Shown here in pieces: positions 41,344-54,241 of a DNA stretch of 64,000 nt (position 1 is its first letter; each line of letters opens with the position of its first letter). The position numbers and the translations under genes were made by a program. The notes beneath the pieces are model-generated. The model saw nothing but the letters and a program-made list of their open reading frames with translations, was not told the origin of the DNA and made no database searches. The stretch spans positions 1-64,000 of the forward strand of contig JASFYY010000030.1 of NCBI GenBank assembly GCA_045046875.1. Reading direction: 5' to 3'. This DNA is from Verrucomicrobiota bacterium. Its GTDB lineage: Bacteria; Verrucomicrobiota; Verrucomicrobiia; Verrucomicrobiales; DEV007.

Positions 41344-42069
41344 TCAGACTTCGCAAGCAGGGGAATTCTGGATCGTTTTGTCGTGCTTGATTTTGCCCAA
41401 TTCCAAACGGTTGATGGTGAAACTGTATAACTTAAGCGGTACAAAAAACAGGATGAAGAGCGTAATAATAGACAAAAATACTCTCCAATCACCGAATTCT
41501 AGGAGGTTACCGTTTTCACTTTCAAAAAGGTGATCCGACATGAGGCCGTAGTAGTCAAACAGGGCAGCAATCAATACGAACAACTGAAGCGCCATGATAG
41601 CAAAGGGCCATCGGCCGATCACATTCTTAAAACTATCGACAGAAAGTCCTTCGCGTCGGAGAAAAAACGATACCAGTGACATGTATAGCGGAAGGCCGAT
41701 CAACATGACAAAAAGCATGCTGATTGGAGATTTGAAGTCGGGCATGAAACTGTCAAGAAACAGTGAAACTCGGCCAACCGACATCACCATGGCAAAAAAG
41801 GTAAAGATGCCAATCAGTCGTCGAAAGTTAGCTTCCGTTTTTTTACGCAAAAGCTGATAGCCATAATGAAAAGCCAAAATTCCGGGGCTGAGTTTCAGAA
41901 TGAAAGAAGAGAACACAGTTAGATAACTCCAGAGCCCGTATCTAGGCGAATAATAATCGGAGCTCAATTCCGCTGCCGCTAGAGTCCAAACAGCGCAATA
42001 CCAAACTCCGAAAATCATCGCCGCAAGAGCAAGCAGATTGCTGAATTTGATGCCTTTGAGGTATTTCAT
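41344..42069 (-). CDS. Hypothetical multi-TM membrane protein
   Basis: 241 aa, about six hydrophobic segments; ATGA overlap with the upstream ORF. Confidence 0.6.
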   Translation of the reverse strand: MKYLKGIKFSNLLALAAMIFGVWYCAVWTLAAAELSSDYYSPRYGLWSYLTVFSSFILKLSPGILAFHYGYQLLRKKTEANFRRLIGIFTFFAMVMSVGRVSLFLDSFMPDFKSPISMLFVMLIGLPLYMSLVSFFLRREGLSVDSFKNVIGRWPFAIMALQLFVLIAALFDYYGLMSDHLFESENGNLLEFGDWRVFLSIITLFILFFVPLKLYSFTINRLELGKIKHDKTIQNSPACEV

Positions 42070-42425
42070 TGCTTCAAGGGAGCTTGAGTGAGAGTCTCGG
42101 TTGAATCCGCAAATTTAAGCTCATTTTCAGCAAGTGAAAAATCATCACCGCAGTATGGGCATTGATTGATCGAGTGAGCAAGTTCAGGGATTTGCAAATG
42201 ACCTTCACTGGGCAGCATCGAGATGCATTGGTCACAACTTGGGCAGCGATCACGTTTTTCGAACACTCGGAAAATAAATCCAAAACCTATTAAGTAAATG
42301 AGGAAAGGGAATCTCTCGTAGTGATTGATCAACCACCAGGAGGAGAGAACCACAAAAACAAGCAGGGCAACTTGCCTGAAAGCAATCGTTTTACGCCGAG
42401 CATTAATTTTATCACGCGAAGTCAT
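42066..42425 (-). CDS. Hypothetical membrane protein with a Zn-ribbon-like motif
   Basis: Two TMs, CPSC...CPYC. Confidence 0.6.
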   Translation of the reverse strand: MTSRDKINARRKTIAFRQVALLVFVVLSSWWLINHYERFPFLIYLIGFGFIFRVFEKRDRCPSCDQCISMLPSEGHLQIPELAHSINQCPYCGDDFSLAENELKFADSTETLTQAPLKQ

Positions 42426-42508
42426 GAGGCCTGCATTTATCTAAGCAAATTTAGCATAGCGAAATATCTAAGGGAGAACCAGCCTTATTCCCTCCCTCCG
42501 TATATTCG

Positions 42509-42536
42509 ATTTCACATTACATGTAGTGTGCGATAC
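42509..42536 (-). other. attL: dif-like hybrid site with a degenerate XerC-type arm
   Basis: ATTTCACATTA-CATGTA-GTGTGCGATAC; 42507-42533 matches 50912-50938 at 26/27. Confidence 0.85.
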
Positions 42537-42550
42537 AAGGAAGTAACATG

Positions 42551-42796
42551 TTAGTTAACAGTATGCAAATCCTTAAGATATGCAAGCCTTGCTGAGCGGT
42601 AAAACTTGTATTCTCGCAAGCTTTTTATTCCATAATAACGCCGCCCAGAACAGCGTATAAACTTTACTTCTCCCTTAACCGCTAATTGGTTAAGACGAGG
42701 GCGGCTAACATCAAGCATAGTCATAGCAAGCGTAGGCGGAAAAATTCCATCTTGCTCACGTTGAAAGCTAAGAAACCTTGAATGACCACTAGCCAT
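42551..42796 (-). CDS. Prophage Xis/MerR-type HTH DNA-binding protein
   Basis: AMTMLDVSRPRLNQLAVKGEV...GRRYY resembles excisionase-type winged HTH. Confidence 0.6.
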   Translation of the reverse strand: MASGHSRFLSFQREQDGIFPPTLAMTMLDVSRPRLNQLAVKGEVKFIRCSGRRYYGIKSLREYKFYRSARLAYLKDLHTVN

Positions 42797-42829
42797 GATG
42801 AAGCGTCAGACTAGACGCGGTGAACGGAG

Positions 42830-43105
42830 TTTTAAGAGATAAAACAGCCAATTTTGTTTTATGGAAATTAGAATATAAGGACAAAAAAAATTTCATTTTA
42901 ATTATTTAATCTTACTAAATTTAAAGTAAACCGAACTAAAGAGCAAGCGAAAGCGCCCACATGGGCGTTGACTCTGCAAATTAAGAAGGGGTTTGCCACC
43001 CCAAACCCCGCTAAACTGATGCAGTTTAATCCAATATTGCCTGCCGGCGGCTTACCCCCTCCGCCCCCTAAAGGGGGAACGGGAGAAGTCGTTTAAGAGA
43101 TAAAA
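42830..43105. promoter_or_regulatory. Prophage intergenic region with clustered hairpins (candidate origin/packaging signal)
   Basis: Hairpins at 42954-42967, 42988-43009, 43012-43028, 43064-43077; located after the secretin gene like the Ff intergenic region. Confidence 0.55.
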
Positions 43106-43339
43106 ACTAAATTCCATTCCAGCAATATTCATAACAACCTTAAAATAAGACAGTTAAAAGGCCATTGAAAAACAGTTTCCCAGGCAAAAGACAATATCCA
43201 AAAAACAAAAGCTTAAGGATGGTTGCCAAGACGACGAAAAGACAAAAGGAAGCCTAGGGCGGCAACCCTTTCTAATTTTTTATTAGTGCTTCGCAGAAAA
43301 AAAGGACATTCATTTTTAATAAGTTCCAAATAATCGCGC

Positions 43340-44587
43340 TTATTTATGCCTCCTAGATGAAAGAAAAGACTTCTTTAAAGTTTTTTTACTCGATGAAAAA
43401 GGCAGTTTGAAGCGTGAAAACAGCTTTTTACGGGGTTTTACAGGCTCAACGGGCAGTTGCATAGGGTCAAAAGTGGCAAGGGCAGGGGAAACAGATTCTG
43501 CAATCGCTGGGACAACTCGAAGCAATAACGCAATCTCACGCCGTGCATTTGATTCATCCTTTTTAAAACCAATCCCAAACAAACCCTTTTGTTTAAATTT
43601 ACGCACCTCCTGACCCTTTAACCCTCCAACGGCATACCATTTGCCCAAAACCGGACGAAAACGACTCTCCCAGACCTGTGAAGCTATTTCCGGTATCAAA
43701 TTGCCGTCAATCTCAGTTTCCCCGGCTACATCCTCAGATATTTGATTCACATTGATTTCAACGCCTGATCCCAATTGCACCAAATCAACAGTAAGAGTAA
43801 GAGCAACGCGCCGAAACTCGATGGAGTTCCGGACATTACCATTACCTTGTTGATCAGAGATAGGAACGGCAATTTCCCGCCCAGATGAAATTTTACCAGT
43901 TTCGCCACTAGAAAGAATAATTGAAGGCCTAGCGACCACATCGAGCCTACCGGAATCCTGTAAACGATCAATTGCTAGCGTGAGCCAATCCGTTTTTAAA
44001 TCCAATCTGCCCGGAGAACTTAAAATTGAATGATTATCAAAACTAAGGCGATCACCTTCCGAATATTTCAGAACCCAATCAAGTGAAAACTTTTCGCCAT
44101 TAGAAATATTAGCAAAACCGATAACAGCCTCAACTCGATACTGATCACCAGCAATATCAATAGCGCCTAACATAGCTTCAATCATTGGAGCCTGGTCCTC
44201 ATCCAATCTGACAATCACTTGATTGCCTACTGGATTAATCATCCAATCAATTCGCGTATTGGTTCCAGAGTTTTGACGGAAAAACTCAATATTAGGAACA
44301 GCCCTATTAACGAATTTGCGAACAATAACAACTTGTTCAGATTTCTCTGATGGGTCAGAAACAGGGGCAGGGGAGGGGAGCAAAGGTTTTTCAACCATTA
44401 AAGGCTGTGGAGCTTTTTCTTGCTCATCATCCAAACCAGTTTTTTCTTTTTCAGAATCATTTTCAGACTCTGCGCGGGCATCCATGGAAGCGCCTATAGC
44501 ACCAAACAAACCGCGACCGCTAGAAAGCCTATTTTTAACACCCCAACCGATGCCAACCAGCAACAACACTACTATTAATAATTTCAT
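43340..44587 (-). CDS. Phage secretin (pIV-like)
   Basis: ARPSII..SGETGKISSGREIAVP...IEFRRVALTLTV...VGGL...REIALLL secretin pattern; AAGGAG RBS; follows pI. Confidence 0.85.
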   Translation of the reverse strand: MKLLIVVLLLVGIGWGVKNRLSSGRGLFGAIGASMDARAESENDSEKEKTGLDDEQEKAPQPLMVEKPLLPSPAPVSDPSEKSEQVVIVRKFVNRAVPNIEFFRQNSGTNTRIDWMINPVGNQVIVRLDEDQAPMIEAMLGAIDIAGDQYRVEAVIGFANISNGEKFSLDWVLKYSEGDRLSFDNHSILSSPGRLDLKTDWLTLAIDRLQDSGRLDVVARPSIILSSGETGKISSGREIAVPISDQQGNGNVRNSIEFRRVALTLTVDLVQLGSGVEINVNQISEDVAGETEIDGNLIPEIASQVWESRFRPVLGKWYAVGGLKGQEVRKFKQKGLFGIGFKKDESNARREIALLLRVVPAIAESVSPALATFDPMQLPVEPVKPRKKLFSRFKLPFSSSKKTLKKSFLSSRRHK

Positions 44588-45341
44588 TTTGTGACTCCTT
44601 TTTTACTCTCATTTTAACCAAGATAGGAAATTCAAGCTCGAGCAAAGCTATAATCCTTTTTAAAACACTAACCTTTTTAACTTGCCGTCTTTTAATTCGG
44701 GCACGCTGATTTTGTGCCATGCCTTGCATAAGTGAATCTAGCATAGCCTCCGTTTTGTAGCAGCGACCAACGGACATAGTGAACCGCGCAAACTTACGCC
44801 GCATAATCAAACCCGATTTAGCATCTCGACAAACCCAAACAAATATTTGACCGAACATTTTACCAATCAAAGGAAGAGTAATATGTTTTAAATTCACTGC
44901 CGACCAAATCACTTGAGACTGTTTTCTGAATTGTGAATTCATCGTGGTTTTGTCCTGGGTAATGAAAATAACATCAACCCCCGCTTTACGACTTTGAGTT
45001 AAGAAAGAAAGCATATCACCATCTTTTGATTGCGTCTCTTTCCACTTATGCGCGTTATACCAAAGATGCCCCTCGTCAATCGTAACGAGAACAGGACATT
45101 CAAGAGAGCCCCAGTCTACAAGTTTCCACCAATCTGTTAAACCATCAGCAACAGGCAAACTTTTTAATTGTTTCGAATCAAATTCAACCCCATAGCGCGC
45201 CGCTAAATAACGAGTCACATGATCATGGTCAAATTCAATATTGGTAAAAGCCGTACCGCCAGCAGCTAAATGCTCAATCGTATTGACTACAGCCAAATAA
45301 GTTTTACCACCCCCGATTTTCCCCTCAATTATAGAAATCAT
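44535..45341 (-). CDS. Phage morphogenesis ATPase pI (Zot family)
   Basis: GKIGGGKT Walker A, VTIDEGH Walker B, SRKAGVDVIFITQ motif. Confidence 0.92.
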   Translation of the reverse strand: MISIIEGKIGGGKTYLAVVNTIEHLAAGGTAFTNIEFDHDHVTRYLAARYGVEFDSKQLKSLPVADGLTDWWKLVDWGSLECPVLVTIDEGHLWYNAHKWKETQSKDGDMLSFLTQSRKAGVDVIFITQDKTTMNSQFRKQSQVIWSAVNLKHITLPLIGKMFGQIFVWVCRDAKSGLIMRRKFARFTMSVGRCYKTEAMLDSLMQGMAQNQRARIKRRQVKKVSVLKRIIALLELEFPILVKMRVKKESQNEIINSSVVAGWHRLGC

Positions 45342-45346
45342 TTTTA

Positions 45347-45670
45347 TTAATTAGCGACTGTTGGAATAAAGCTTTTGATCCAACGAAACAAAAGCAACGC
45401 TGAAAACATGGTGAAATACGCAAGGCTCATTGCGAGAGTTTCAGACAAGGCAAAAAAATGATTCACTAAACCCGAAACCTCAGCAACAGCGCTGAAATTC
45501 AGATTAGAAAACATCATTTGCGACGAGAGAAAAGAAGCAAAATTTACAAGCAAATCTGCAAGCATACCAGTAACCGATTCAATCACGGCAACCACTGGCA
45601 AAACGAAAAGACTAAGTTTAGCTAACATTTTAGCCATAAACTCAGCAATCCTAACTAATAACAAGGCCAT
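45347..45670 (-). CDS. Minor coat protein pVI-like
   Basis: 107-aa hydrophobic ORF between pIII and pI, ending RWIKSFIPT. Confidence 0.7.
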   Translation of the reverse strand: MALLLVRIAEFMAKMLAKLSLFVLPVVAVIESVTGMLADLLVNFASFLSSQMMFSNLNFSAVAEVSGLVNHFFALSETLAMSLAYFTMFSALLLFRWIKSFIPTVAN

Positions 45671-45673
45671 GTT

Positions 45674-47440
45674 TTATATTTTTAAAGTTTTATAGGACAA
45701 CGTGAGAAAACCGACACTCATAAAAATGAGAGTGCAAAGCCGAACCATGCCCCAAACCGAACTTGTGAAATCCAGCTTTAAAGGAAAATTTGCACCTAGA
45801 AGAGTAAAACTTTTATCAATCATAGCCACGTCACCCGAAAAGGCCGGAATCGTAGGCAATGACATAAATTTACCATTATCAGAAAGACTATCTTTCAAAA
45901 TTTCCAAATCATTAAATGAATCAGTTAAAGCTGTAGCAGATTCTACACCCGACAAATCTCCCGATTCCATATCGAGATTATTAGCATAACCCAAAGCCTC
46001 AGCGTCAATACGCCGTATTTCACCAGCAACATCACCATCACCCGTAATTTTTACACTTGATGAATTATCAATCTCTGTAATTTCTGGTGGAAGGGGAATA
46101 GAACCCGTAAAACCATTAGTGTTTGAAACCGTAGTTGAAGTAGTCCCGTCTGGATTTGTTGTAGTGACGACCTGACTAGCCGTGGTTGAGCCGTCCGAGC
46201 CAATCACAGAAGAACCCGATGTTGTGACCGTTCCAGACCCGCCAACAATTGCACCACGTAAATTGAGCTCAGAAACACTAAGAGTTCCACCGCCGATTTG
46301 CTCAACCGGCGTACCTGATTGAGTCGTGACAGTTAATCCAGAAGCCGACTCTAGCGCATAATTCCTATCAACAGTCGTCTGACCATTGCCAACAGCAATC
46401 GTTTCAACTGGCCTTTCACCGTCTTGGATAACTATAATTTGTGGAGCTCCAGATTGATTGTCAACATTAAGCCGCACAGTAAAATCATCAGCAGGGTTAA
46501 AAGTCAAATTCCCCGCCGATTGAGTACGCGTAGATGCACCAACCACAAAAGAAGGATCAAAAGAAGGATCAAGAGCACCAGTAGGAACAACAAAAATCTG
46601 AGTGCCAGGCGGCAAATCTTGCGAACCGGAAATCTGCAAAGTTTGCCCAGGAGCGATATCAATAGCTCCATTTGTTAAACTAATTTGCTGCCCATCAGGA
46701 GTCAAAGCAAAGACCTCCAAAGACCGTGTGGTATCGTCATTATTAGTGACCTGATAATCAAAATCAAGACCCTCAATTTCCGGGGGAGCGGCAGTAGAAA
46801 CACCTGGCCGACCAGTTGCCGGAACCTCAATAGAATAAAGATTAATACCCTCAACAGGAAAAGAAATCGAACTAGAAGTAACAGACCCCAAAGAAATAGA
46901 AAGGCCAACGGTTACACTGCCAGAAAGTAACAATTCAAAGGAAACACTGTCCAGAATAGTCTCTGAATTATAATCGAGCAATTGAAACGTACCAAAAATA
47001 GAACCCTCAGCAATAACATTAATAGGCGGGTCAGTTGTCTGAGGATAAAGCCTGCCATCATCTGACCCCGCTGTACCATAACTTTTAAAACCTCTAACAG
47101 TATTAAAATTATGAGTTAAAGCGCGAATGCTCTCAGCAGGAACGCTAGTGGCGATTTTATCAACACTCAGCGCATAAATTGCATGTTGACCAGAGTCTAA
47201 AAGAATTCGAACTTTAAAATGCTTTTGAGTCAACGCCTGATTGTGCACATTAAAGGGAATATTAGCACTCTTAAAACTAAAAATTGCCGCACCAGAAACA
47301 ACCGTTCCATCATTAAAAGTTAGATTTTCGCCTCCCAAATATTTACGAGAACCCGTAAAATCAGTCGTTATTTTATAGCCCTGAGCGGCTAACTCACTTG
47401 ATAAACCAAGAATTAATACCGTAAATACTAACAAGCGCAA
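45674..47440 (-). CDS. Receptor-binding minor coat protein pIII-like
   Basis: Probable TTG start at 47440 (MRLLVFTVLILGLSSELAAQ signal peptide, GGGGGG upstream); beta-rich body, G/S/T linker, C-terminal TM; syntenic position. Confidence 0.75.
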   Translation of the reverse strand: MRLLVFTVLILGLSSELAAQGYKITTDFTGSRKYLGGENLTFNDGTVVSGAAIFSFKSANIPFNVHNQALTQKHFKVRILLDSGQHAIYALSVDKIATSVPAESIRALTHNFNTVRGFKSYGTAGSDDGRLYPQTTDPPINVIAEGSIFGTFQLLDYNSETILDSVSFELLLSGSVTVGLSISLGSVTSSSISFPVEGINLYSIEVPATGRPGVSTAAPPEIEGLDFDYQVTNNDDTTRSLEVFALTPDGQQISLTNGAIDIAPGQTLQISGSQDLPPGTQIFVVPTGALDPSFDPSFVVGASTRTQSAGNLTFNPADDFTVRLNVDNQSGAPQIIVIQDGERPVETIAVGNGQTTVDRNYALESASGLTVTTQSGTPVEQIGGGTLSVSELNLRGAIVGGSGTVTTSGSSVIGSDGSTTASQVVTTTNPDGTTSTTVSNTNGFTGSIPLPPEITEIDNSSSVKITGDGDVAGEIRRIDAEALGYANNLDMESGDLSGVESATALTDSFNDLEILKDSLSDNGKFMSLPTIPAFSGDVAMIDKSFTLLGANFPLKLDFTSSVWGMVRLCTLIFMSVGFLTLSYKTLKI

Positions 47441-47558
47441 TAAACCCCCCAAGAATTGTCGAAATACCCTCGTTGAAAATCGCAATAAAACCCGTTGCAG
47501 GCTCATTGATTTTTTGAAGCTCTGCCAAAATTTGAGTAAGTAATTCATTATCAGTCAT
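47394..47558 (-). CDS. Small single-TM phage protein (minor coat pVII/pIX-like candidate), 54 aa
   Basis: MTDNELLTQ...ISTILGGFIALVSIYGINSWFIK; overlaps the pIII start. Confidence 0.55.
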   Translation of the reverse strand: MTDNELLTQILAELQKINEPATGFIAIFNEGISTILGGFIALVSIYGINSWFIK

Positions 47559-47569
47559 TACGTAAAGGG

Positions 47570-47944
47570 CTAAGACCAATCAGCGTCGTCTGGATGCGAG
47601 TCTCTCAGAAACTCTTGATATGCCGCCTCATTTTCCTCTGCGGTCATTTCGTTTCCACTCGCATCATAAAAAGTTTGAGGTTCAGCACTCAGTAAATCAC
47701 CATCATCATTGTAAGAATATTCAACGCCATTCTCAACATATTGATTAGGATGAGCAGATTCATTCATACCGTGTAAATCCCAATCCTCCATTTGTTCTTG
47801 TAAATAATCATCATCACCATTAACTAAAATTTTAAAAGTGCTGATGACTTTCTCAACTACAAAAAGAGTAATCACAGCAATCAAGCCACCCAATAAAAAA
47901 AGTTTTATTTCAGAATCCGCGTAATCAAAAAGAGTATCAAACAT
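47570..47944 (-). CDS. Phage protein with N-terminal TM and highly acidic C-terminal domain
   Basis: LFLLGGLIAVITLFVV followed by a D/E-rich tail. Confidence 0.65.
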   Translation of the reverse strand: MFDTLFDYADSEIKLFLLGGLIAVITLFVVEKVISTFKILVNGDDDYLQEQMEDWDLHGMNESAHPNQYVENGVEYSYNDDGDLLSAEPQTFYDASGNEMTAEENEAAYQEFLRDSHPDDADWS

Positions 47945-47969
47945 AAGAATAAATAGATTAAATTAAATA

Positions 47970-48007
47970 GTTTTAAGAGGGGATGAATAAACACCCCCCC
48001 TTAAAAC
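47970..48007 (-). terminator. Hairpin after the major coat gene
   Basis: Minus strand GTTTTAAGGGGGGGTG-TTTATT-CATCCCCTCTTAAAAC; position equals the Ff post-gene-VIII terminator. Confidence 0.65.
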
Positions 48008-48015
48008 GATCAACC

Positions 48016-48231
48016 CTAGCTGATGATGCGTTTAGCAGCACGCAGCACGAACACGGCACCAATCACGATACCGACCACAGCAACAGCGGCAGGAATCACC
48101 AAGCCAAGTTCAGTGGAAATGTCACCAGTAGCAGTGACAAGATCAGCACCAACACCAGCCTGAGCTGATCCAGAAGCCAACAACGATGCACCCGCAAGAG
48201 CGCCCAACAGCATGTTTTTATTTTTTTTCAT
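48016..48231 (-). CDS. Major coat protein (pVIII-like)
   Basis: 25-aa signal peptide ending AQA; 46-aa mature protein with acidic N-part, TM and basic RAAKR end. Confidence 0.88.
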   Translation of the reverse strand: MKKNKNMLLGALAGASLLASGSAQAGVGADLVTATGDISTELGLVIPAAVAVVGIVIGAVFVLRAAKRIIS

Positions 48232-48251
48232 GTTTTTCTTATTTTGTCTAA

Positions 48252-48356
48252 TTAACCGCCGACAGCATCAAAAACCAGCCTAACCCCAGATATAACTACG
48301 CCAACAGCTCGCAAACCGAACCAAAGCAAAATTAAACTGGAAGCTGTCAATACCAT
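48252..48356 (-). CDS. Small hydrophobic ORF (34 aa), pIX/pVII-like; not in the ORF track
   Basis: Manual translation MVLTASSLILLWFGLRAVGVVISGVRLVFDAVGG*, immediately upstream of the coat gene. Confidence 0.6.
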   Translation of the reverse strand: MVLTASSLILLWFGLRAVGVVISGVRLVFDAVGG

Positions 48357-48372
48357 CTATAAACGATTAAAT

Positions 48373-48552
48373 CTATAATGCCGCTCCCCGTGCTACCTCG
48401 GCAGGAGTCACCAACCGAGAGCCCGCAGTCATAGGGAGAAGCAAAGTTTCACTAGCTTTCAAATCTTTTAAAATTCGATAAGCTAAAATTCTCAATTCCT
48501 TACTTTTTTGGATACTCTGAAAACAGAGTTTTTTAATTTCGTTATTGTTCAT
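48373..48552 (-). CDS. Small phage protein (59 aa); not in the ORF track
   Basis: MNNNEIKKLCFQ...EVARGAAL*; ATGA overlap with the upstream 65-aa ORF. Confidence 0.55.
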   Translation of the reverse strand: MNNNEIKKLCFQSIQKSKELRILAYRILKDLKASETLLLPMTAGSRLVTPAEVARGAAL

Positions 48553-48746
48553 CCTTCAAGGAATTTAGTGGGAACATCTTTGAAGAAATCAATGTGGACT
48601 GATTGCAATTCCGCATTTTTCTTTTCCTTCACATGATCAGTTGTATGATTTAAATACTTTTTTAAAAAATCATCATCAGAAGCACCGAGCGCATAACATT
48701 CAAACTGTCTACCATCGGCATCTAAACAAATAAATTTAACTCTCAT
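48549..48746 (-). CDS. Small phage hypothetical protein (65 aa)
   Basis: Co-oriented ORF within the prophage gene run. Confidence 0.55.
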   Translation of the reverse strand: MRVKFICLDADGRQFECYALGASDDDFLKKYLNHTTDHVKEKKNAELQSVHIDFFKDVPTKFLEG

Positions 48747-48842
48747 GTCAATTAAGTTTTATTTTAACAAGGAAAGGAAACCCGCTTTCCTCGGTGTGCT
48801 CTCGCAAGCTCGGCACAGTCGAGGTAAGCGGGTAATCCTTAT

Positions 48843-49217
48843 TTAAACTATCTTGATGTCTCCCATCAATTCAGGATTAGACCCTTGGTTAGTATTCGCA
48901 CTAGTGACATTGATTTCAACTGCCGCGAATTGGGGCAGGGGAACCAATGAACCAGGCGAACCCTCTTTTGCCTCTGCCATCTGTAGATGTGAAAACGAGC
49001 CTTTGCCGTCTGAAATCTCAGTGGTGACACGCTCCCAACATTTGCCTGACTTTGCCATCTTAGGCGGTGTATGGACTGACGTGACAACTAAGCCACAAGC
49101 TATCAAGCCGGTACGGTCACTGAATTTATCTTGGAGAATTCCAGCGAACATTTTAACCATTGGGCTTTCATCCGATTTATTCCCTGCCTGTCTTTCGATA
49201 ATAAGTTTTTCTGCCAT
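48843..49217 (-). CDS. Probable ssDNA-binding protein (pV-like)
   Basis: 124 aa, beta-rich, directly after Rep; assigned mainly by synteny. Confidence 0.55.
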   Translation of the reverse strand: MAEKLIIERQAGNKSDESPMVKMFAGILQDKFSDRTGLIACGLVVTSVHTPPKMAKSGKCWERVTTEISDGKGSFSHLQMAEAKEGSPGSLVPLPQFAAVEINVTSANTNQGSNPELMGDIKIV

Positions 49218-50044
49218 GATTCTATGTGTTTTTCAATGTTTTTTGCCGCTGTGTAGTATTGTTTGTTATACGGCAGCGACGCTTTACCGATAAAAACCAG
49301 ATTGTTTAAATCTGTAAAAAATGTTGATTTGAGGGATTTTAATCTTGTGACCTGTGAGCCTAAATACCTGTCCTGTGAGTCTCTAGCAATCAGCACTACA
49401 CAACACGCCCAACGGTCTAATTTTGCGCGCACTGTCCATGGTAAAAGACAGCTTTTCGGTTCGAGCTTTTTTTTTAGCTCAGTATCAATATTGCCAGTGT
49501 AAAAATGTGGGGACGTTTGCCAGAATCGCGCACGGTCGAACGTTTTTCCATCGTCGCCCTGATAATCAGCGAACCAATCAGGGATGGTGGAATTTGAACC
49601 ATCGGGATTTTTGAAAAGGTATTTGAACATATAGTCCAACGTTGCGCCCTCGATGCGTTTGATATTGACGCGACCCAATCCCCAAAACTCGCTGACCATC
49701 TGCATCTCAAACACGGTTAGTTTGCGAGTTATAGACATAGCCATGTGCCAATGTACCCAGCCATGATTCAAACCATTGCCGCCGTGAAATTCCATCTTCC
49801 AACAATGTTTAATCTCGAAATGGTCACCAAATTGCATTTTCATCATCGCGTTAAATCTACGCAAGCGGTCTAACCCTTTGAAATAACCGTCTACCTCATC
49901 CACAAATAGATCAGGATTGAGAGTTAGGGTGATGAAACGCCAATTTGTCATATCTGGCACACCCTTAGCAAGTATCTTGTTGCGCATCATCCGCACACCT
50001 TCGGGAGTAAACCAGTTTGGAAATTTGTAGTCTCTGATTTCCAT
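49103..50044 (-). CDS. HUH-superfamily rolling-circle replication initiator
   Basis: Motif I FITLT, motif II WVHWHM, motif III YMFKY. Confidence 0.88.
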   Translation of the reverse strand: MEIRDYKFPNWFTPEGVRMMRNKILAKGVPDMTNWRFITLTLNPDLFVDEVDGYFKGLDRLRRFNAMMKMQFGDHFEIKHCWKMEFHGGNGLNHGWVHWHMAMSITRKLTVFEMQMVSEFWGLGRVNIKRIEGATLDYMFKYLFKNPDGSNSTIPDWFADYQGDDGKTFDRARFWQTSPHFYTGNIDTELKKKLEPKSCLLPWTVRAKLDRWACCVVLIARDSQDRYLGSQVTRLKSLKSTFFTDLNNLVFIGKASLPYNKQYYTAAKNIEKHIESWQKNLLSKDRQGINRMKAQWLKCSLEFSKINSVTVPA

Positions 50045-50045
50045 A

Positions 50046-50378
50046 TTATCCGAGTTGTAAGTTTTCCTGTGTTTCCACGGGACCCAATAAATCCAAAATC
50101 AAGCCACGCAGGAAAATAACTACGGCATAACGGAAACGCCCCATATGACAAAAAAATCGGCGTCCATCATCCATCAAAATTAACCACTCCCCGAGCCCTA
50201 AATATACGGCGACGCATTTGCGGTGTGAAATCGTCTCGTTACGATAACAAAGCTCGAATAATAGAGCGGGGGGAGCGGTTGGCAAAACCTCGAATTGAGG
50301 TTTGCATTTCTGGCGAGAAAAATCCCGCGGGTCGGAAGAGATCAAATCAATGATCCCAATTTCTGGCTGGTCTGCCAT
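50046..50378 (-). CDS. Phage hypothetical protein
   Basis: 110 aa, abuts the Rep start. Confidence 0.5.
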   Translation of the reverse strand: MADQPEIGIIDLISSDPRDFSRQKCKPQFEVLPTAPPALLFELCYRNETISHRKCVAVYLGLGEWLILMDDGRRFFCHMGRFRYAVVIFLRGLILDLLGPVETQENLQLG

Positions 50379-50528
50379 ATCTTATTTTGTCTAGTAAAAA
50401 CGGGATTACTTAAGTCCCGTTGTCCGAATCAATCGAACGACACCAGAAAACACCAAATAAAAGAAAATGTCAAAATAAAAAAAACAGAGCAGCGAAACCG
50501 AAAGACAAATCGAGCCTCTAAAAAAGAA

Positions 50529-50681
50529 TCAAATAATGAAATTCAGCAAAGATTTCTCCAAAGCGCCAAAGATTAAATACCTAACCGCAAAGTAAAGAAT
50601 AACCAAAATAGGAATAGTTAGGATGGCAGATAAGCAACTACCCAAACAGCTTTTTTTACCAGCTTCCCAATTCAATTTCAT
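50529..50681 (-). CDS. Small single-TM phage protein (50 aa); not in the ORF track
   Basis: MKLNWEAGKKSCLGSCLSAILTIPILVILYFAVRYLIFGALEKSLLNFII*. Confidence 0.4.
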   Translation of the reverse strand: MKLNWEAGKKSCLGSCLSAILTIPILVILYFAVRYLIFGALEKSLLNFII

Positions 50682-50740
50682 AATTCAAAAATATAATTAA
50701 AAACAAAACCCGAAAAGAAAATCAAACCGGAAAGAGCATT

Positions 50741-50776
50741 AAAAAAGCCTTCTGGGATTAAGTAGTCCCAGAAGGC
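50741..50776 (-). terminator. Rho-independent terminator-like hairpin just inside attR
   Basis: GCCTTCTGGGA/TCCCAGAAGGC 11-bp stem with T6 on the minus strand. Confidence 0.7.
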
Positions 50777-50913
50777 GTATGAAGGTAACTAGCCTTCTTC
50801 GCGCCCAAAAGACTAGACAGGGATAAGAAACCCTTGGAAAACCCTTGTGCGCTTATAGACACCATAAACGCACAAAGCCTGATAGAGCAAGGGGAATTAG
50901 AACAAAAAACCCG

Positions 50914-50941
50914 ATTTCACATTACATGTATTGTGCGAAGT
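50914..50941 (-). other. attR = reconstituted chromosomal dif site
   Basis: Minus strand ACTTCGCACAA-TACATG-TAATGTGAAAT; 11-6-11 layout resembling E. coli dif GGTGCGCATAA-TGTATA-TTATGTTAAAT. Confidence 0.85.
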
Positions 50942-51007: not shown

Positions 51008-54000
51008 TTACACATCCAGTATTTCGCGCAGATCATCCGTATTCAAGCCTCTCATCATCGGACTGTTGTCGTCGATAGCTGCATCGAACACGTCACGCTT
51101 CTGCTGTTGCAGCTTGAGAATCTTTTCTTCCACCGTGTCGCGTGCGATGAATTTGTAACTGGTGACGATCTTGCTTTGACCAATCCGGTGCGCACGATCA
51201 GTGGCCTGGGCTTCCACTGCAGGATTCCACCATGGATCAAAATGCATCACCGTGTCGGCTGCGGTCAGATTCAGCCCGTAACCGCCCGCTTTCAGGCTGA
51301 TCAGGAAAACCTTCACATTTTCATCAGTCTGAAATCTCTCCACCTGCGCTGCTCTGTCCTGACTGGATCCATCCAAATATGCGATTTCGCCGTCATAAAA
51401 ATCCGCCTGCTCCAATTCTTCCCTGATCAACTTCAGCATGCTCACAAATTGGCTGAAAATCAGCATCCGGTGTCCACCAGCCAGCGCCTCCTGTAACATT
51501 TCACGCAAAAGCTGCAATTTGGCCGAATCCTCAGACTTTCGCGGTTTGATCGACGAAGTTTCCGAGCCTTGTGATGGATCTTTATCAGCAGATTTCAATA
51601 ACCTCGAATCGCAGCAGATCTGACGAAGCCTGAGCAATGCCGTGAGCATATTCATTCTTGCCGCGCGCTCATCACCACTCGAAAAAGCTTGGTTTATTTT
51701 ATTACGTGATTCACGTAATATACCGGCATAAAGTTCTTTTTGTGTGCTGGTTAATTGACAATAAACAATCTCTTCCATCTTCTCTGGTAGATCGGTAGCC
51801 ACCTTTTGTTTGGTGCGCCGCAGAATCATAGGTTCGAGGCGCCTGCGGAAGCGTTGATGCAGCGGAACGGACGCTTTGCCAGAATTAATGGGCTTTTCGT
51901 AGAGCTCTTTGAACTCCTCACGCGAACCTAAATATCCCGGGCGGACAAAATCGCTGATCGACCAGATGTCGAGCACCGAGTTCTCCACCGGAGTGCCGGT
52001 CAGAGCCAATCTCGAATCTGCGTTCAGCTTCTTGGCACTGCGTGCATTGTGGGTACTTGGATTGCGAATGTAACTGGCTTCATCAAGCACCACCAAACGG
52101 AAATACTGTTGTTGGTATTGTTCGATATCACGGATCAATAGCGCGTAGCTGGTGATGACCACATCGGCAAAACGCATGTTTTTAAAATGACCGCCGCGCT
52201 TGGGTCCGCGCATCAGCAAACAACTGTATTCCGGAGTGAACTTTTCAATCTCCTGATCCCAGTTGTCGATCAGCGACGTAGGGCAAACAACCAGCATAGG
52301 GCCTGATACTTTTTTGCCCCGTGCCTCCGTCTGCGCTTTCAGCAGCCTGGAAGTCGCCAAGGTTTGCAAGGTTTTGCCCAAGCCCATTTCGTCAGCTAGA
52401 ATGGCCCCGCCGCCGTGCTCCGGCAGCAGTTTGTGATACAGCCAGGCGATGCCGTCACGTTGATACGGTCTCAAAATATCGTTCAACTCCGCCAAAGTCT
52501 GACAGAACTGATCATCGTCTGTTTGCAGTTTTAATTCCTGCTCGGCAGATTGGCTGTTTTGGTAACAGGCGATACTGGATTCGATGTAATCCCGCTGCTG
52601 CGTTGCTATCCGGAAACGGCCGTCCTGCTGAGTCAGGTCACAATCCCTCAATACTTCCAGCCAGTCTTCGCAAGCATCTCTATCGAGTACCGCGAGCGTT
52701 CCGTCACCGCTTTTCCGGATCTGGTTCTGCCCGGTCGCTAGAAATCGTCTGATTTCATGCTCACTGATGGATGAATGACCTTGCGCGCCCTCCATTTCGA
52801 ATTCACAGCTGAACCAATCCTGCCCCTGGGAGCTGGCCTCGAAAGTCACGCTTGGTCGAATCGCTCGAACGTGTGAGGTTGCCGCGCCGTATTTAGCGCC
52901 AGCCTTCACCAGCCTCCATTTTTTCCGCAGGCGAGGAACCACGCTGACATGAAAATGCAGCACTTCATTCTGCCCGCGCAGATGCAAGCAGCCTTGCTGG
53001 TCAACCGAAGAGAATCCACTCGCAGTCAGTTCCCGCAGCGCCGTCATCTCGGCTTGCAGGTTACGGGTGAAATAGCGTGTGCGCCCCCCCGTGGAGCTGT
53101 CGGAGGTTTGACCCACATAAGGGAAATGAGATTCATTGGCATCCTCTGAATCACGCCCCAGTATCAGTTCATAATCTGCGTAAAAAACATGGATACTCGC
53201 CGTCACATGAATGAGCGAGCCATCTATGTGCAGCTCGAATGCCGGCCGGCCCGGAGCAAGCGACGGGGGCTGAAAACCTACTGCCGTTTCAATCTCAAAA
53301 ACATCCGACCATTCTTCTATGACAGTAGCCAACCAAGCTTCATCAAAATTCTGCCCCTGTTCTCCTGCCGCCAGTAGCTCTAGCGCGGTTGCCCTGGAAG
53401 ACGAATTTTCCGGCCATCTCACTGGCCACAGCTGTTGACGCTGATCATTATAAACCCAGGGGCTATCGTCACCATCCTCGTTTTTCAATAAAACCTGATT
53501 GCCATCGCTAAAACCTGACAATTGCAGCTTAACCTTTGCTTGATCTTGTCCGCTTAGATGGATTTTCAAGCGAATCGCCTGCTCATTGATAGATAAAGGC
53601 TGTTCTTTTTTATCAACTGAGAAACAAGGATAGGTGGCGCAAAGCCTGAGCAACTCACCGCCTTGCTTACGGTTCAAAATCAAAAAAGGAGGCAACGCTT
53701 TTTGAGCGGACGGCCCTAATGAATGCAGCCATTGTCGAATTTGGTTGGATTGCTCAAGCACCCGTTCTTCAACAGGATTGTCCGGCGCACGCACAGCGAG
53801 GCGAATCGGAAATTTATCTTTTTCCCATAATCGCGTAAAAACAGACTCTAATTTTATTATTATAAGCTGTTCAGAGGTAATTTTATCGGCAGGTTTAAAT
53901 CCTTCACCGATTAACACCTTCGCATCTTTACCCTCTTTCAACTCACTCTGCAATTCATCGGCAGCGAGCGCAACCGCAACGGAATGGGCGCAAATCAGCC

Positions 54001-54241
54001 CGTCGCGCAGTGATTCCCGGCAGCGGCACAGGTTATCCACCTCGGTCGACGAATGAATGTTAAGTCCGGCAATTTGAACTTTACGCCCTATCTTCACCTT
54101 CCCTTTTACCAAGGTTCCCCGGATATTTGCATCAGACACCCCTCCTCCGGCATAAATGAGCCCCCCATCCTTTACCGCCTTCCATCCAGCCGTCTCCATT
54201 AGCCAAGATTTACTTAGGTCCATAAATAGAATTGCAATCAA
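51008..54241 (-). CDS. SNF2-family helicase with N-terminal SWIM zinc finger
   Basis: CRC...CAH; ILADEMGLGKT, LDEA, LTGTPVEN, QATDRAHRIGQ. Confidence 0.92.
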   Translation of the reverse strand: MIAILFMDLSKSWLMETAGWKAVKDGGLIYAGGGVSDANIRGTLVKGKVKIGRKVQIAGLNIHSSTEVDNLCRCRESLRDGLICAHSVAVALAADELQSELKEGKDAKVLIGEGFKPADKITSEQLIIIKLESVFTRLWEKDKFPIRLAVRAPDNPVEERVLEQSNQIRQWLHSLGPSAQKALPPFLILNRKQGGELLRLCATYPCFSVDKKEQPLSINEQAIRLKIHLSGQDQAKVKLQLSGFSDGNQVLLKNEDGDDSPWVYNDQRQQLWPVRWPENSSSRATALELLAAGEQGQNFDEAWLATVIEEWSDVFEIETAVGFQPPSLAPGRPAFELHIDGSLIHVTASIHVFYADYELILGRDSEDANESHFPYVGQTSDSSTGGRTRYFTRNLQAEMTALRELTASGFSSVDQQGCLHLRGQNEVLHFHVSVVPRLRKKWRLVKAGAKYGAATSHVRAIRPSVTFEASSQGQDWFSCEFEMEGAQGHSSISEHEIRRFLATGQNQIRKSGDGTLAVLDRDACEDWLEVLRDCDLTQQDGRFRIATQQRDYIESSIACYQNSQSAEQELKLQTDDDQFCQTLAELNDILRPYQRDGIAWLYHKLLPEHGGGAILADEMGLGKTLQTLATSRLLKAQTEARGKKVSGPMLVVCPTSLIDNWDQEIEKFTPEYSCLLMRGPKRGGHFKNMRFADVVITSYALLIRDIEQYQQQYFRLVVLDEASYIRNPSTHNARSAKKLNADSRLALTGTPVENSVLDIWSISDFVRPGYLGSREEFKELYEKPINSGKASVPLHQRFRRRLEPMILRRTKQKVATDLPEKMEEIVYCQLTSTQKELYAGILRESRNKINQAFSSGDERAARMNMLTALLRLRQICCDSRLLKSADKDPSQGSETSSIKPRKSEDSAKLQLLREMLQEALAGGHRMLIFSQFVSMLKLIREELEQADFYDGEIAYLDGSSQDRAAQVERFQTDENVKVFLISLKAGGYGLNLTAADTVMHFDPWWNPAVEAQATDRAHRIGQSKIVTSYKFIARDTVEEKILKLQQQKRDVFDAAIDDNSPMMRGLNTDDLREILDV

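Follow-up and report, generated by a model that had tools for sequence, protein, structure and literature searches.

A probable case of integrase-less inovirus integration at dif in the Verrucomicrobiales

How might an inovirus that encodes no recombinase have entered the chromosome of a member of the Verrucomicrobiales? The window (the whole 64,000-nucleotide stretch that was analysed) contains, between two near-identical repeats, an element that its genes for Rep, coat protein, pI/Zot and pIV confirm to be an inovirus prophage (Table 1). The genomic marks of Tubulavirales are present: a pI/Zot ATPase, a small coat protein, a rolling-circle Rep, a size within 5-15 kb and an Ff-like gene order. 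As had been claimed in the original prediction, the element lacks a recombinase: the only ORFs of at least 150 aa between the repeats encode pIV, pI, the pIII-like protein and Rep, no recombinase family was found by Pfam or PHROGs among the 12 main prophage ORFs (the others being shorter than 150 aa), and PF00589 had no match on contig C30 and eight on other contigs. From the evidence set out below, it seems very probable that the element was inserted into the host's dif, the site at which chromosome dimers are resolved, by the host's own XerC and XerD, and so is an IMEX.

Table 1. Features of the prophage and its borders (positions in the window; an empty strand cell means that no strand applies)
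Feature	Position	Strand	Remarks
Half-degraded site	42509..42536	-	Phage XerC-side arm GTATCGCACAC, same core, host XerD arm
81-aa excisionase/MerR-like winged HTH protein	42551..42796	-	Ends 14 bp ahead of half-site
AT-rich intergenic region	42797..43339		Several short hairpins in predicted fold; possibly an origin or packaging region
pIV-like secretin	43340..44587	-	PF00263 3.5e-11; phrog_1012 1.8e-23
pI/Zot-family assembly ATPase	44535..45341	-	Inovirus marker; PF05707 2.5e-14; phrog_197, phrog_1675
pVI-like hydrophobic protein	45347..45670	-	From position; homologues upstream of pI in related prophages; no family match
pIII-like adsorption protein	45674..47548	-	From size and position; no Pfam or PHROG match; true start may be further downstream
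124-aa ORF	47570..47944	-	No Pfam or PHROG match
Major coat protein, pVIII-like	48016..48231	-	Signal peptide and hydrophobic helix; phrog_1646 E 0.0045
Two small ORFs (59 and 65 aa)	48373..48746	-	No Pfam or PHROG match
Putative ssDNA-binding protein	48843..49217	-	From position after Rep; weak L027 homologue, E 8e-4; no family match
Rolling-circle replication initiator (Rep)	49103..50044	-	PF23343 2.8e-9; homologues in related prophages
110-aa ORF	50046..50378	-	No Pfam or PHROG match, no usable Atlas match
Two strong hairpins	50747-50776, 50845-50875		Predicted fold; just inside intact site
Intact dif-like site	50914..50941	-	Host XerC arm, 6-bp core, phage-side XerD arm
Host SNF2-family helicase gene	51008..54241	-	dif-side landmark in congeners and at seven other prophage loci

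The two ends of the prophage

The near-identical 27-mers reported at 42507-42533 and 50912-50938 do indeed agree at 26 of 27 positions. The right-hand copy, read on the minus strand from 50941 to 50914, is ACTTCGCACAA-TACATG-TAATGTGAAAT, and so has the predicted 11-6-11 layout, with arms that are palindromic at 7 of 11 positions; this 28-bp site is the functional unit and refines the 27-mer repeat. The left-hand copy, which corresponds to the attP 28-mer deduced for the phage, has the same core and XerD arm, but differs at 4 of the 11 positions of the XerC arm, one of them adjoining the core. The spacing of the two sites (8,377 bp) makes this an 8.4-kb prophage. The host flank of the left site matches the empty site of a close congener (G005) at 15 of 18 bases.

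When the whole genome (5.59 Mb in 163 contigs) was scanned with the right-hand 28-mer, allowing up to seven mismatches, only the site itself and the left copy (four mismatches) were recovered, the next matches having eight. Scoring by a degenerate dif consensus gave the right copy 24 out of 24 and its nearest competitors, the left copy and a single site of contig C20, 21. The site is thus single-copy by both approaches, and the consensus scan brought to light no better candidate for dif. It probably represents the working chromosomal dif, as judged from its sequence. It had been described as a variant dif peculiar to this host; its identification as dif stands, but not its novelty, since it closely resembles sites predicted for Verrucomicrobia in 2011 (Kono 2011; PMC3025954 supplement). 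Its XerC arm is identical to that predicted for Methylacidiphilum, and its XerD arm begins with TAATG, as in the prediction for Akkermansia. Those sites, so far predictions only, gain independent support from the prophage.

Host recombinases, the empty site and the terminus

The host has both an XerC-like and an XerD-like gene, with best matches to TIGR02224 and TIGR02225 that fall just below the cut-offs (305 against 335 bits and 325 against 330 bits, respectively). The XerD-like protein exceeds the PRK00283 cut-off and its neighbours are named XerD. An FtsK-gamma-like gene is also present, as are six further PF00589 matches. Four of five congeners carry the site once, adjoining the SNF2 gene and identical to the right-hand site at 27 of 28 positions; in G005 the site is empty and its flanks are about 97% identical to those of the window element. 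The expectation of a single empty site beside SNF2 in relatives was therefore borne out in four of the five, except that the core in all four is TATATG rather than the predicted TACATG.

With the phage removed from the contig, leading-strand octamers change polarity somewhere from 40.2 to 44 kb, and the site lies at 42.5 kb, in keeping with its proposed position near a strand switch. Plain GC skew on C30 peaks at 34.6 kb, 8 kb away from the site, and contig C83 has a second strong switch from plus to minus skew with no dif-like site, a caveat on the assignment of the terminus. Support from relatives is mixed, whether from short-flank GC skew (uninformative, with left exceeding right in 14 of 25), the skew of 18 sampled blocks or the distance from dnaA. 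In two genomes of the class with a single contig, or nearly so, 174 and 168 degrees separate the site from dnaA; in three closed genomes of the Verrucomicrobiales the separation is only 40-78 degrees. Flanking skew agrees with a terminus at the site in G638 and to some extent in G596, though not in G564.

Two features of an IMEX were thus found: insertion at chromosomal dif (a unique 11-6-11 site, empty in a congener, at a polarity switch and matching published predictions, subject to the caveat of C83), and a dif-like attP of which one junction regenerates dif. None of the five findings that the original prediction had named as contrary to it (a multicopy motif, a site far from the terminus, relatives without the site, another dif, or a host lacking XerC/XerD) was made. 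Its main proposal, integrase-less integration at dif in a distant phylum, is supported, and we infer dependence on XerCD.

Inoviruses and dif across the order

A search of 134 genomes of the family gave 66 with a match, 65 of them with one site per genome; the reversed-pattern control gave none. Among other Zot-positive genomes of the order, 20 of 22 had a dif-like site at the prophage, and in 16 both ends were of the window type. The usual landing site of inoviruses in the Verrucomicrobiales is dif, commonly with a XerC-degraded partner site, although the counts are not independent, because the elements are related (the Zot tree was a quick version that gave long-branch warnings). In a set of 23 pairs, the XerC-arm base that abuts the core is A in all 23 intact sites and in 5 of the 23 partner sites, and the three XerD-side core bases are the same in 23 of 23; this conservation of core and D arm is partly by construction, since the pairs were chosen on identity in those parts. 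An XerD-based profile, which did detect two integrase-bearing Zot loci outside the order, revealed no tyrosine recombinase inside the paired elements scanned.

The published IMEXs compared here are proteobacterial, so this case extends dif integration to an order of the PVC superphylum. A supplement to Roux 2019 (PMC6813254) catalogues four species of Verrucomicrobia inoviruses, but neither that work nor Kono 2011 drew the link between dif and inoviruses in this phylum: XerC and XerD are not mentioned in the Roux supplements that were searched, nor XerC or 'dif site' in the main text. Matches to pI among GenBank phages were weak and of Ff type only. Viral contigs yielded no match to a single-sequence Zot search; a 17-nt arm-plus-core scan gave 13 matches, one of them a full dif-like site (L019), and none of the 13 had a tblastn match to the window phage proteins.

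Routes of integration and the neighbouring winged-helix gene

The Vibrio phages CTXphi and VGJphi, like XacF1, phiRSS, Ypfphi and UPphi, are inoviruses that use dif through host XerCD (PMC4471427, PMC7307601), all of them in Proteobacteria, unlike the present host. The parallel originally drawn with CTXphi, VGJphi and TLCphi holds for integrase-less use of dif, but each of the three breaks down at a feature that defines it, since the degraded arm in the present case is that of XerC. The attP of CTX is folded ssDNA and the VGJ core is heterologous on the XerD side; neither trait is seen in the window element. The element comes closest to TLCphi and the gonococcal genetic island (GGI), which carry no integrase (PMC5357621, PMC9226527, PMC6744903). 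Their attP resembles dif, agrees with the host dif in its core and is degraded in one arm; a small gene with an HTH adjoins it, and they form arrays at dif, all points shared with elements of the window type. The TLCphi-type pattern of conserved XerC arm and core with a degenerate XerD arm, found also in the GGI, is nevertheless reversed here, as in a mirror image, and for this reason the rebuilt dif lies at the opposite end. Gammaproteobacterial tailless phages are likewise integrase-less, with a terminal gene pair flanking att and P15/XafT; the 17-mer printed as their attP reads, to us, as XerD arm plus core only, and resembles the window attP, but these are dsDNA phages. The XerC-arm-degraded attP falls outside the three textbook IMEX routes.

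We suppose that the double-stranded replicative form would bear an attP with intact XerD arm and core and a degraded XerC arm, that XerD would bind it and recruit XerC, and that two strand exchanges would complete the crossover with dif; within this scheme the most likely order, to which we incline, has XerD exchanging its strand first. After integration, a working dif would be rebuilt from the host C arm, the core and the phage D arm, and the other junction, made up of the phage C arm, the core and the host D arm, would be crippled. Because the crippled site would be a poor partner for FtsK-driven resolution, the prophage would not be excised at each division.

Alternatively, as with VGJphi, basal XerC might make a single strand exchange on double-stranded attP, with replication resolving the junction and the winged-helix protein acting as an XafV-like helper of XerC. 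In G564 the core and D arm of the intact site differ from those of the partner, which equals the dif of three congeners; in this one case exchange therefore took place on the XerC side of the core, a point in favour of the scheme above, and the phage core in the intact site would also be expected from an XerC-first exchange followed by replication. In G075, moreover, a homologous winged-helix gene (40% identity to the window protein) adjoins an end that retains the XerC arm alone. However, the arm degraded in the window element is that of XerC, the base at the scissile position included; the XerD-side core bases, constant in the 23 selected pairs, are where attP-VGJ differs (PMC5357621); and the similarity to XafV (ORF136) is not significant (hhalign probability 0.45%, E 0.13, in the N-terminal HTH only), leaving the two proteins as positional analogues. 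This route appears unlikely. Much less credible is a process independent of Xer, in which an integrase in trans or short-homology recombination used the 17-bp identity and hit dif by chance, the Xis-like gene beside att being a relic directionality factor of a lost integrase: the six other PF00589 matches would fit, as would the occurrence in G664 and G710 of gene plus half-site at places other than dif, but the sequence shared across divergent hosts with different dif and integrase sets is core plus XerD arm. A CTX-type hairpin attP, folded from two inverted dif-like sites in ssDNA, was rejected as scarcely credible: the production of ssDNA by inoviruses and the presence of hairpins close to the intact site would suit it, but the joined site of the window element has no inverted arm (up to two mismatches) within 300 nt and distal pairing at only 1 of its 28 bases in the predicted fold, and a weak inverted arm of this kind was seen in only 6 of 28 elements.

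What might the winged-helix gene contribute? Its product is assigned to HTH_17 by Atlas features (0.93; Pfam E 0.016, under the cut-off), and its AF2 model (pLDDT 89) gives weak fold matches to BldC and Pukovnik Xis (E 0.03-0.06). TLCphi-type elements have instead an XRE HTH neighbour with DUF3653 (XafT), a domain absent here; PF12375 was above cut-off nowhere in the genome and absent from C30, so the protein is not a XafT homologue. No match was found among GenBank phages. In 20 of 21 strong copies, one of them in a non-phage unit of 1.8 kb, the gene ends 2-96 bp ahead of the half-site; a search for it in 28 paired elements drew a blank in 14, so that it would be dispensable for some elements of the same type. 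A predicted complex with the catalytic domain of XerD scored 0.00 and carries no weight either way. The protein may be put forward as an accessory or directionality factor for Xer recombination, one that might, we suggest tentatively, bind near attP and tune integration or excision. With similar reserve, one may imagine gene and XerC-degraded half-dif as a portable cassette, the protein representing a new class of Xer accessory (an excisionase fold controlling a host recombinase, unrelated to FtsK-gamma or XafT) that would let inoviruses and cargo units of about 2 kb form dif arrays across the Verrucomicrobiales by a route mirroring that of TLCphi. A 28-bp site with one small gene could, by our inference, become an integration tool for genetically recalcitrant Verrucomicrobiota.

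The elements form a natural series, with at least four core variants, more than 20 junction pairs and one named isolate with an array, through which the sequence of strand exchanges, and what the innermost base of the XerC arm does, can be put directly to the test. Finally, a motif overlapping the degraded arm, found post hoc, absent from the window element and given no weight here, occurs at 5 of 28 junctions, compared with 15 of 4547 background windows.

The prophage and its two sites

The 8.4-kb inovirus prophage works like an IMEX, that is, an element integrating at dif through the host XerC and XerD: every IMEX feature that can be checked from sequence was found, and the original prediction of integrase-less integration at dif is upheld, with dependence on XerCD as something that we infer. 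As defined, the CTX, VGJ and TLC types do not include it. The claimed repeat is real (26/27 identity between 42507-42533 and 50912-50938). The two sites have an 11-6-11 layout (XerC arm, core, XerD arm) and share core and right arm, with mismatches at four of the 11 left-arm bases; the left copy is a half-site. No further site was found at up to seven mismatches in the 5.59-Mb assembly (94.7% complete).

GC content is 41% across the 8,377 bp between the sites and 49% in the remaining window. The genes there run along the minus strand and follow the inovirus order; in line with the claim, none has a match to a recombinase family, and of eight PF00589 matches genome-wide none is on the prophage contig, C30. 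The pI protein matched nine GenBank phage records, each weakly (27-33% identity).

Features at the prophage and its borders in the window; prophage genes in their order, Rep first and the 81-aa ORF last
Feature	Position	Strand	Sequence or basis
Right site, intact	50941-50914	-	ACTTCGCACAA-TACATG-TAATGTGAAAT
Core of right site	50925-50930		TACATG
Rep		-	PF23343
Putative ssb		-	
Major coat		-	phrog_1646, weak
pIII-sized ORF		-	size
pVI-like		-	
pI/Zot		-	PF05707
pIV secretin		-	PF00263
81-aa ORF (wHTH gene)	42551-42796	-	
Left site, degraded XerC arm	42536-42509	-	GTATCGCACAC-TACATG-TAATGTGAAAT
Core of left site	42520-42525		TACATG
Two small host-side ORFs adjoining the site, variable	41344-42425		

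The site as the host dif

The recombinase genes expected of the host were located, XerD-like on C25 and XerC-like on C77 (for each the expected TIGRFAM was the best match, scoring slightly below its cut-off), and FtsK-gamma is encoded on C33; those homologues of the host's XerD that are named come from Verrucomicrobiota. The expectation of an empty site in relatives held in part: a single-copy site lies beside the same SNF2 gene in four of five congeners, but with the core TATATG. One close congener (G005) has the empty allele, with flanks about 97% identical: its left flank agrees at 15/18 positions with window sequence to the left of the left copy, and its right flank at 51/60 with that to the right of the right copy, against 17/60 in crossed comparisons. 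Of the two host-side ORFs, one (119 aa) has 72% identity in G005, against 98-99% for other flanking genes, and the other (241 aa) is absent from it.

A degenerate dif pattern matched 66 of 134 family genomes, including this host, once in each except G052, with two matches, both at contig ends; its control matched none of the 134. The notion of a host-specific 'variant dif' was not borne out, as the site nearly matches the 2011 predictions for Verrucomicrobia: that for Methylacidiphilum has the same XerC arm and the core TATATG, and that for Akkermansia has an XerD arm beginning TAATG (Kono et al., 2011; PMC3025954), so this is the ordinary dif of the phylum. TATATG is the core in all four congeners with the site and in 59/67 family sites; TACATG, found at both junctions here, may have arisen by drift in the host, or may be a phage core that became fixed through excision and re-integration.

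The predicted proximity to a skew switch was also found. On C30 the GC skew changes from positive to negative, with a plateau that spans 34.6 to about 42 kb. The 60 octamers with the strongest strand bias (trained on 91 other contigs; prophage removed) flip at 40.2-44 kb, bracketing the site. A contrary case is C83, with a switch of equal strength but no dif-like site. Among relatives, the distance between dnaA and the site is 174 and 168 degrees for two genomes but 40-78 degrees for another three, and flanking skew is weak and mixed; dnaA may fail as an oriC marker in this order. The host genome has this second terminus-like switch on C83 (40 kb), an origin-like switch on C2 (54 kb), and dnaA on C15, where there is no clear switch, a pattern possibly due to an inversion or mis-join.

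Related prophages and a proposed mechanism

The dif-sited prophage with a half-site is a recurring pattern in the order, beyond this single case. Within the order, a profile built from 29 pI homologues matched 22 of 400 other genomes. In 16 of these, the upstream site is an intact dif and the downstream partner keeps core plus XerD arm (13 partners with at most three mismatches over 17 nt; three with four, a level that shuffles also reach). G075 pairs a dif at one end with no more than an XerC arm at the opposite end. In three more genomes a single end is seen, the contig being cut, and for the remaining two the contigs are too short for a call. In a phylum sample the profile matched 13 of 400 other genomes, five at a dif-like site, two with a tyrosine integrase nearby, and six lacking a site or on short contigs. 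Among seven named loci (Haloferula luteola, Luteolibacter, Akkermansiaceae and Chthoniobacter records), five have both ends and one a half-site on a cut contig; no site was found on the seventh, a 7-kb contig labelled Bdellovibrionales. Across the whole genome, five of these named examples have the core-plus-arm pattern only two to three times each; four have it at the ends of the element, and the fifth on two contigs.

Over all anchored loci, 23 of 31 have a downstream partner with at most three mismatches (20 shuffles per locus gave minima of 3-5). In these 23 pairs core identity by position is 23, 23, 22, 23, 23 and 23 of 23 (partly by selection), and XerC-arm identity 2-17 of 23. The core-adjacent XerC-arm base is A in all 23 intact sites, and C (15), A (5), T (2) or G (1) in partners, a change worth noting because the XerD arm's first and fifth innermost bases were found to be crucial (PMC9226527). 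When XerC arm plus core was searched for instead, only L151 and G075 gave a partner. In a quick tree the half-site type is spread across several branches and hosts, with kin non-independent.

How might such an arrangement arise? Crossover in the core would give one junction with the host XerC arm and phage XerD arm, which must still resolve chromosome dimers; as it must work as dif, the phage would have to preserve both the core and the XerD arm. The second junction would receive the phage XerC arm, whose degradation should shield the prophage from routine excision, a protection that we infer by analogy with the described escape of TLC and GGI from FtsK (PMC9226527). Since the cores match, a complete crossover in two steps is favoured over the CTX/VGJ routes, in which a single exchange takes place (PMC5357621). 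A CTX-type attP was rejected, no inverted site of that kind being present. In G564, the intact junction has the phage-type core and the partner matches three other genomes (G562, G619 and G517), which argues against an XerD-only exchange and is compatible with either strand-exchange order.

Integration of inoviruses at dif is well documented for Proteobacteria (PMC4471427, PMC7307601, PMC9765430), and PM2 and Vibrio double-jelly-roll prophages have been described with an attP of 17 bp that has one arm (PMC12715192). Roux et al. listed inovirus prophages of Verrucomicrobia, in passages without Xer terms (PMC6813254), and an Akkermansia genomics paper speculated on phage integration through XerCD/dif (PMC9241678). 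Across the open literature searched, titles and abstract openings yielded no description of a verrucomicrobial IMEX or Xis-like Xer factor.

Other arrangements were seen. The G075 Zot prophage (L215:4686-17243) adjoins dif on its XerC side; at the far end a perfect XerC arm has been kept, beyond which the sequence is unrelated. In G396, Zot elements flank one dif on both sides (L151/L152), one ending in XerC-arm-plus-core (TLC-like) and the other in a core-plus-XerD-arm site, with an XerD-like gene about 14 kb from the dif site. Three half-sites form an array after the prophage in L101:13162-15570 and L040:11066-12255 (0.3-1.3 kb spacing), one unit having an ankyrin-like ORF (by eye), like IMEX-array cargo. 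A lone perfect XerC arm lies within the element at L169:14234 and L170:14372, 1.5-1.9 kb upstream of the half-site.

The wHTH gene beside the half-site

The 81-aa ORF has a predicted winged-HTH fold (pLDDT 89) weakly resembling Xis/MerR/BldC-type domains, with eight BLAST homologues among the first loci and 91 cluster representatives matching its profile at E <=0.001. Of 21 distinct copies in fetched loci (E <=1e-10), all but the one in G075 terminate 2-96 bp ahead of a site made of core plus XerD arm (score at least 13/15 for 17 of these 20, and 12 for three); none of 16 weak generic HTH matches in those loci has such a site (<=12/15). A non-phage unit of 1.8 kb at dif (L216) has the gene too. 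It was not detected in 14 of 28 paired elements, and is therefore not essential for the half-site type. The protein may serve as an Xer accessory factor, or alternatively as a simple regulator or in excision. The accessory factors XafT and XafV likewise adjoin attP (bioRxiv 10.64898/2026.06.12.731946), but XafT works via DUF3653 (PMC6744903), absent here, and comparison with XafV was not significant.

In G075 the gene (40% identity to the window's) is directly beside the XerC-arm end: the same gene, at the opposite site type. Non-phage units of about 1.8-2 kb at dif (L216:4051-5869 in G068, L219:9236-7401 in G672, L038:15105-17203), bounded by an intact site and a half-site or by two half-sites, are candidate mini-IMEXs or phage remnants; the gene is intact in the first and apparently decayed in the others. 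In L217 (G664, about 347 kb from dif) and L218 (G710 contig C12, two copies), gene and half-site have no intact dif partner nearby, and are possibly rearranged or ectopic.
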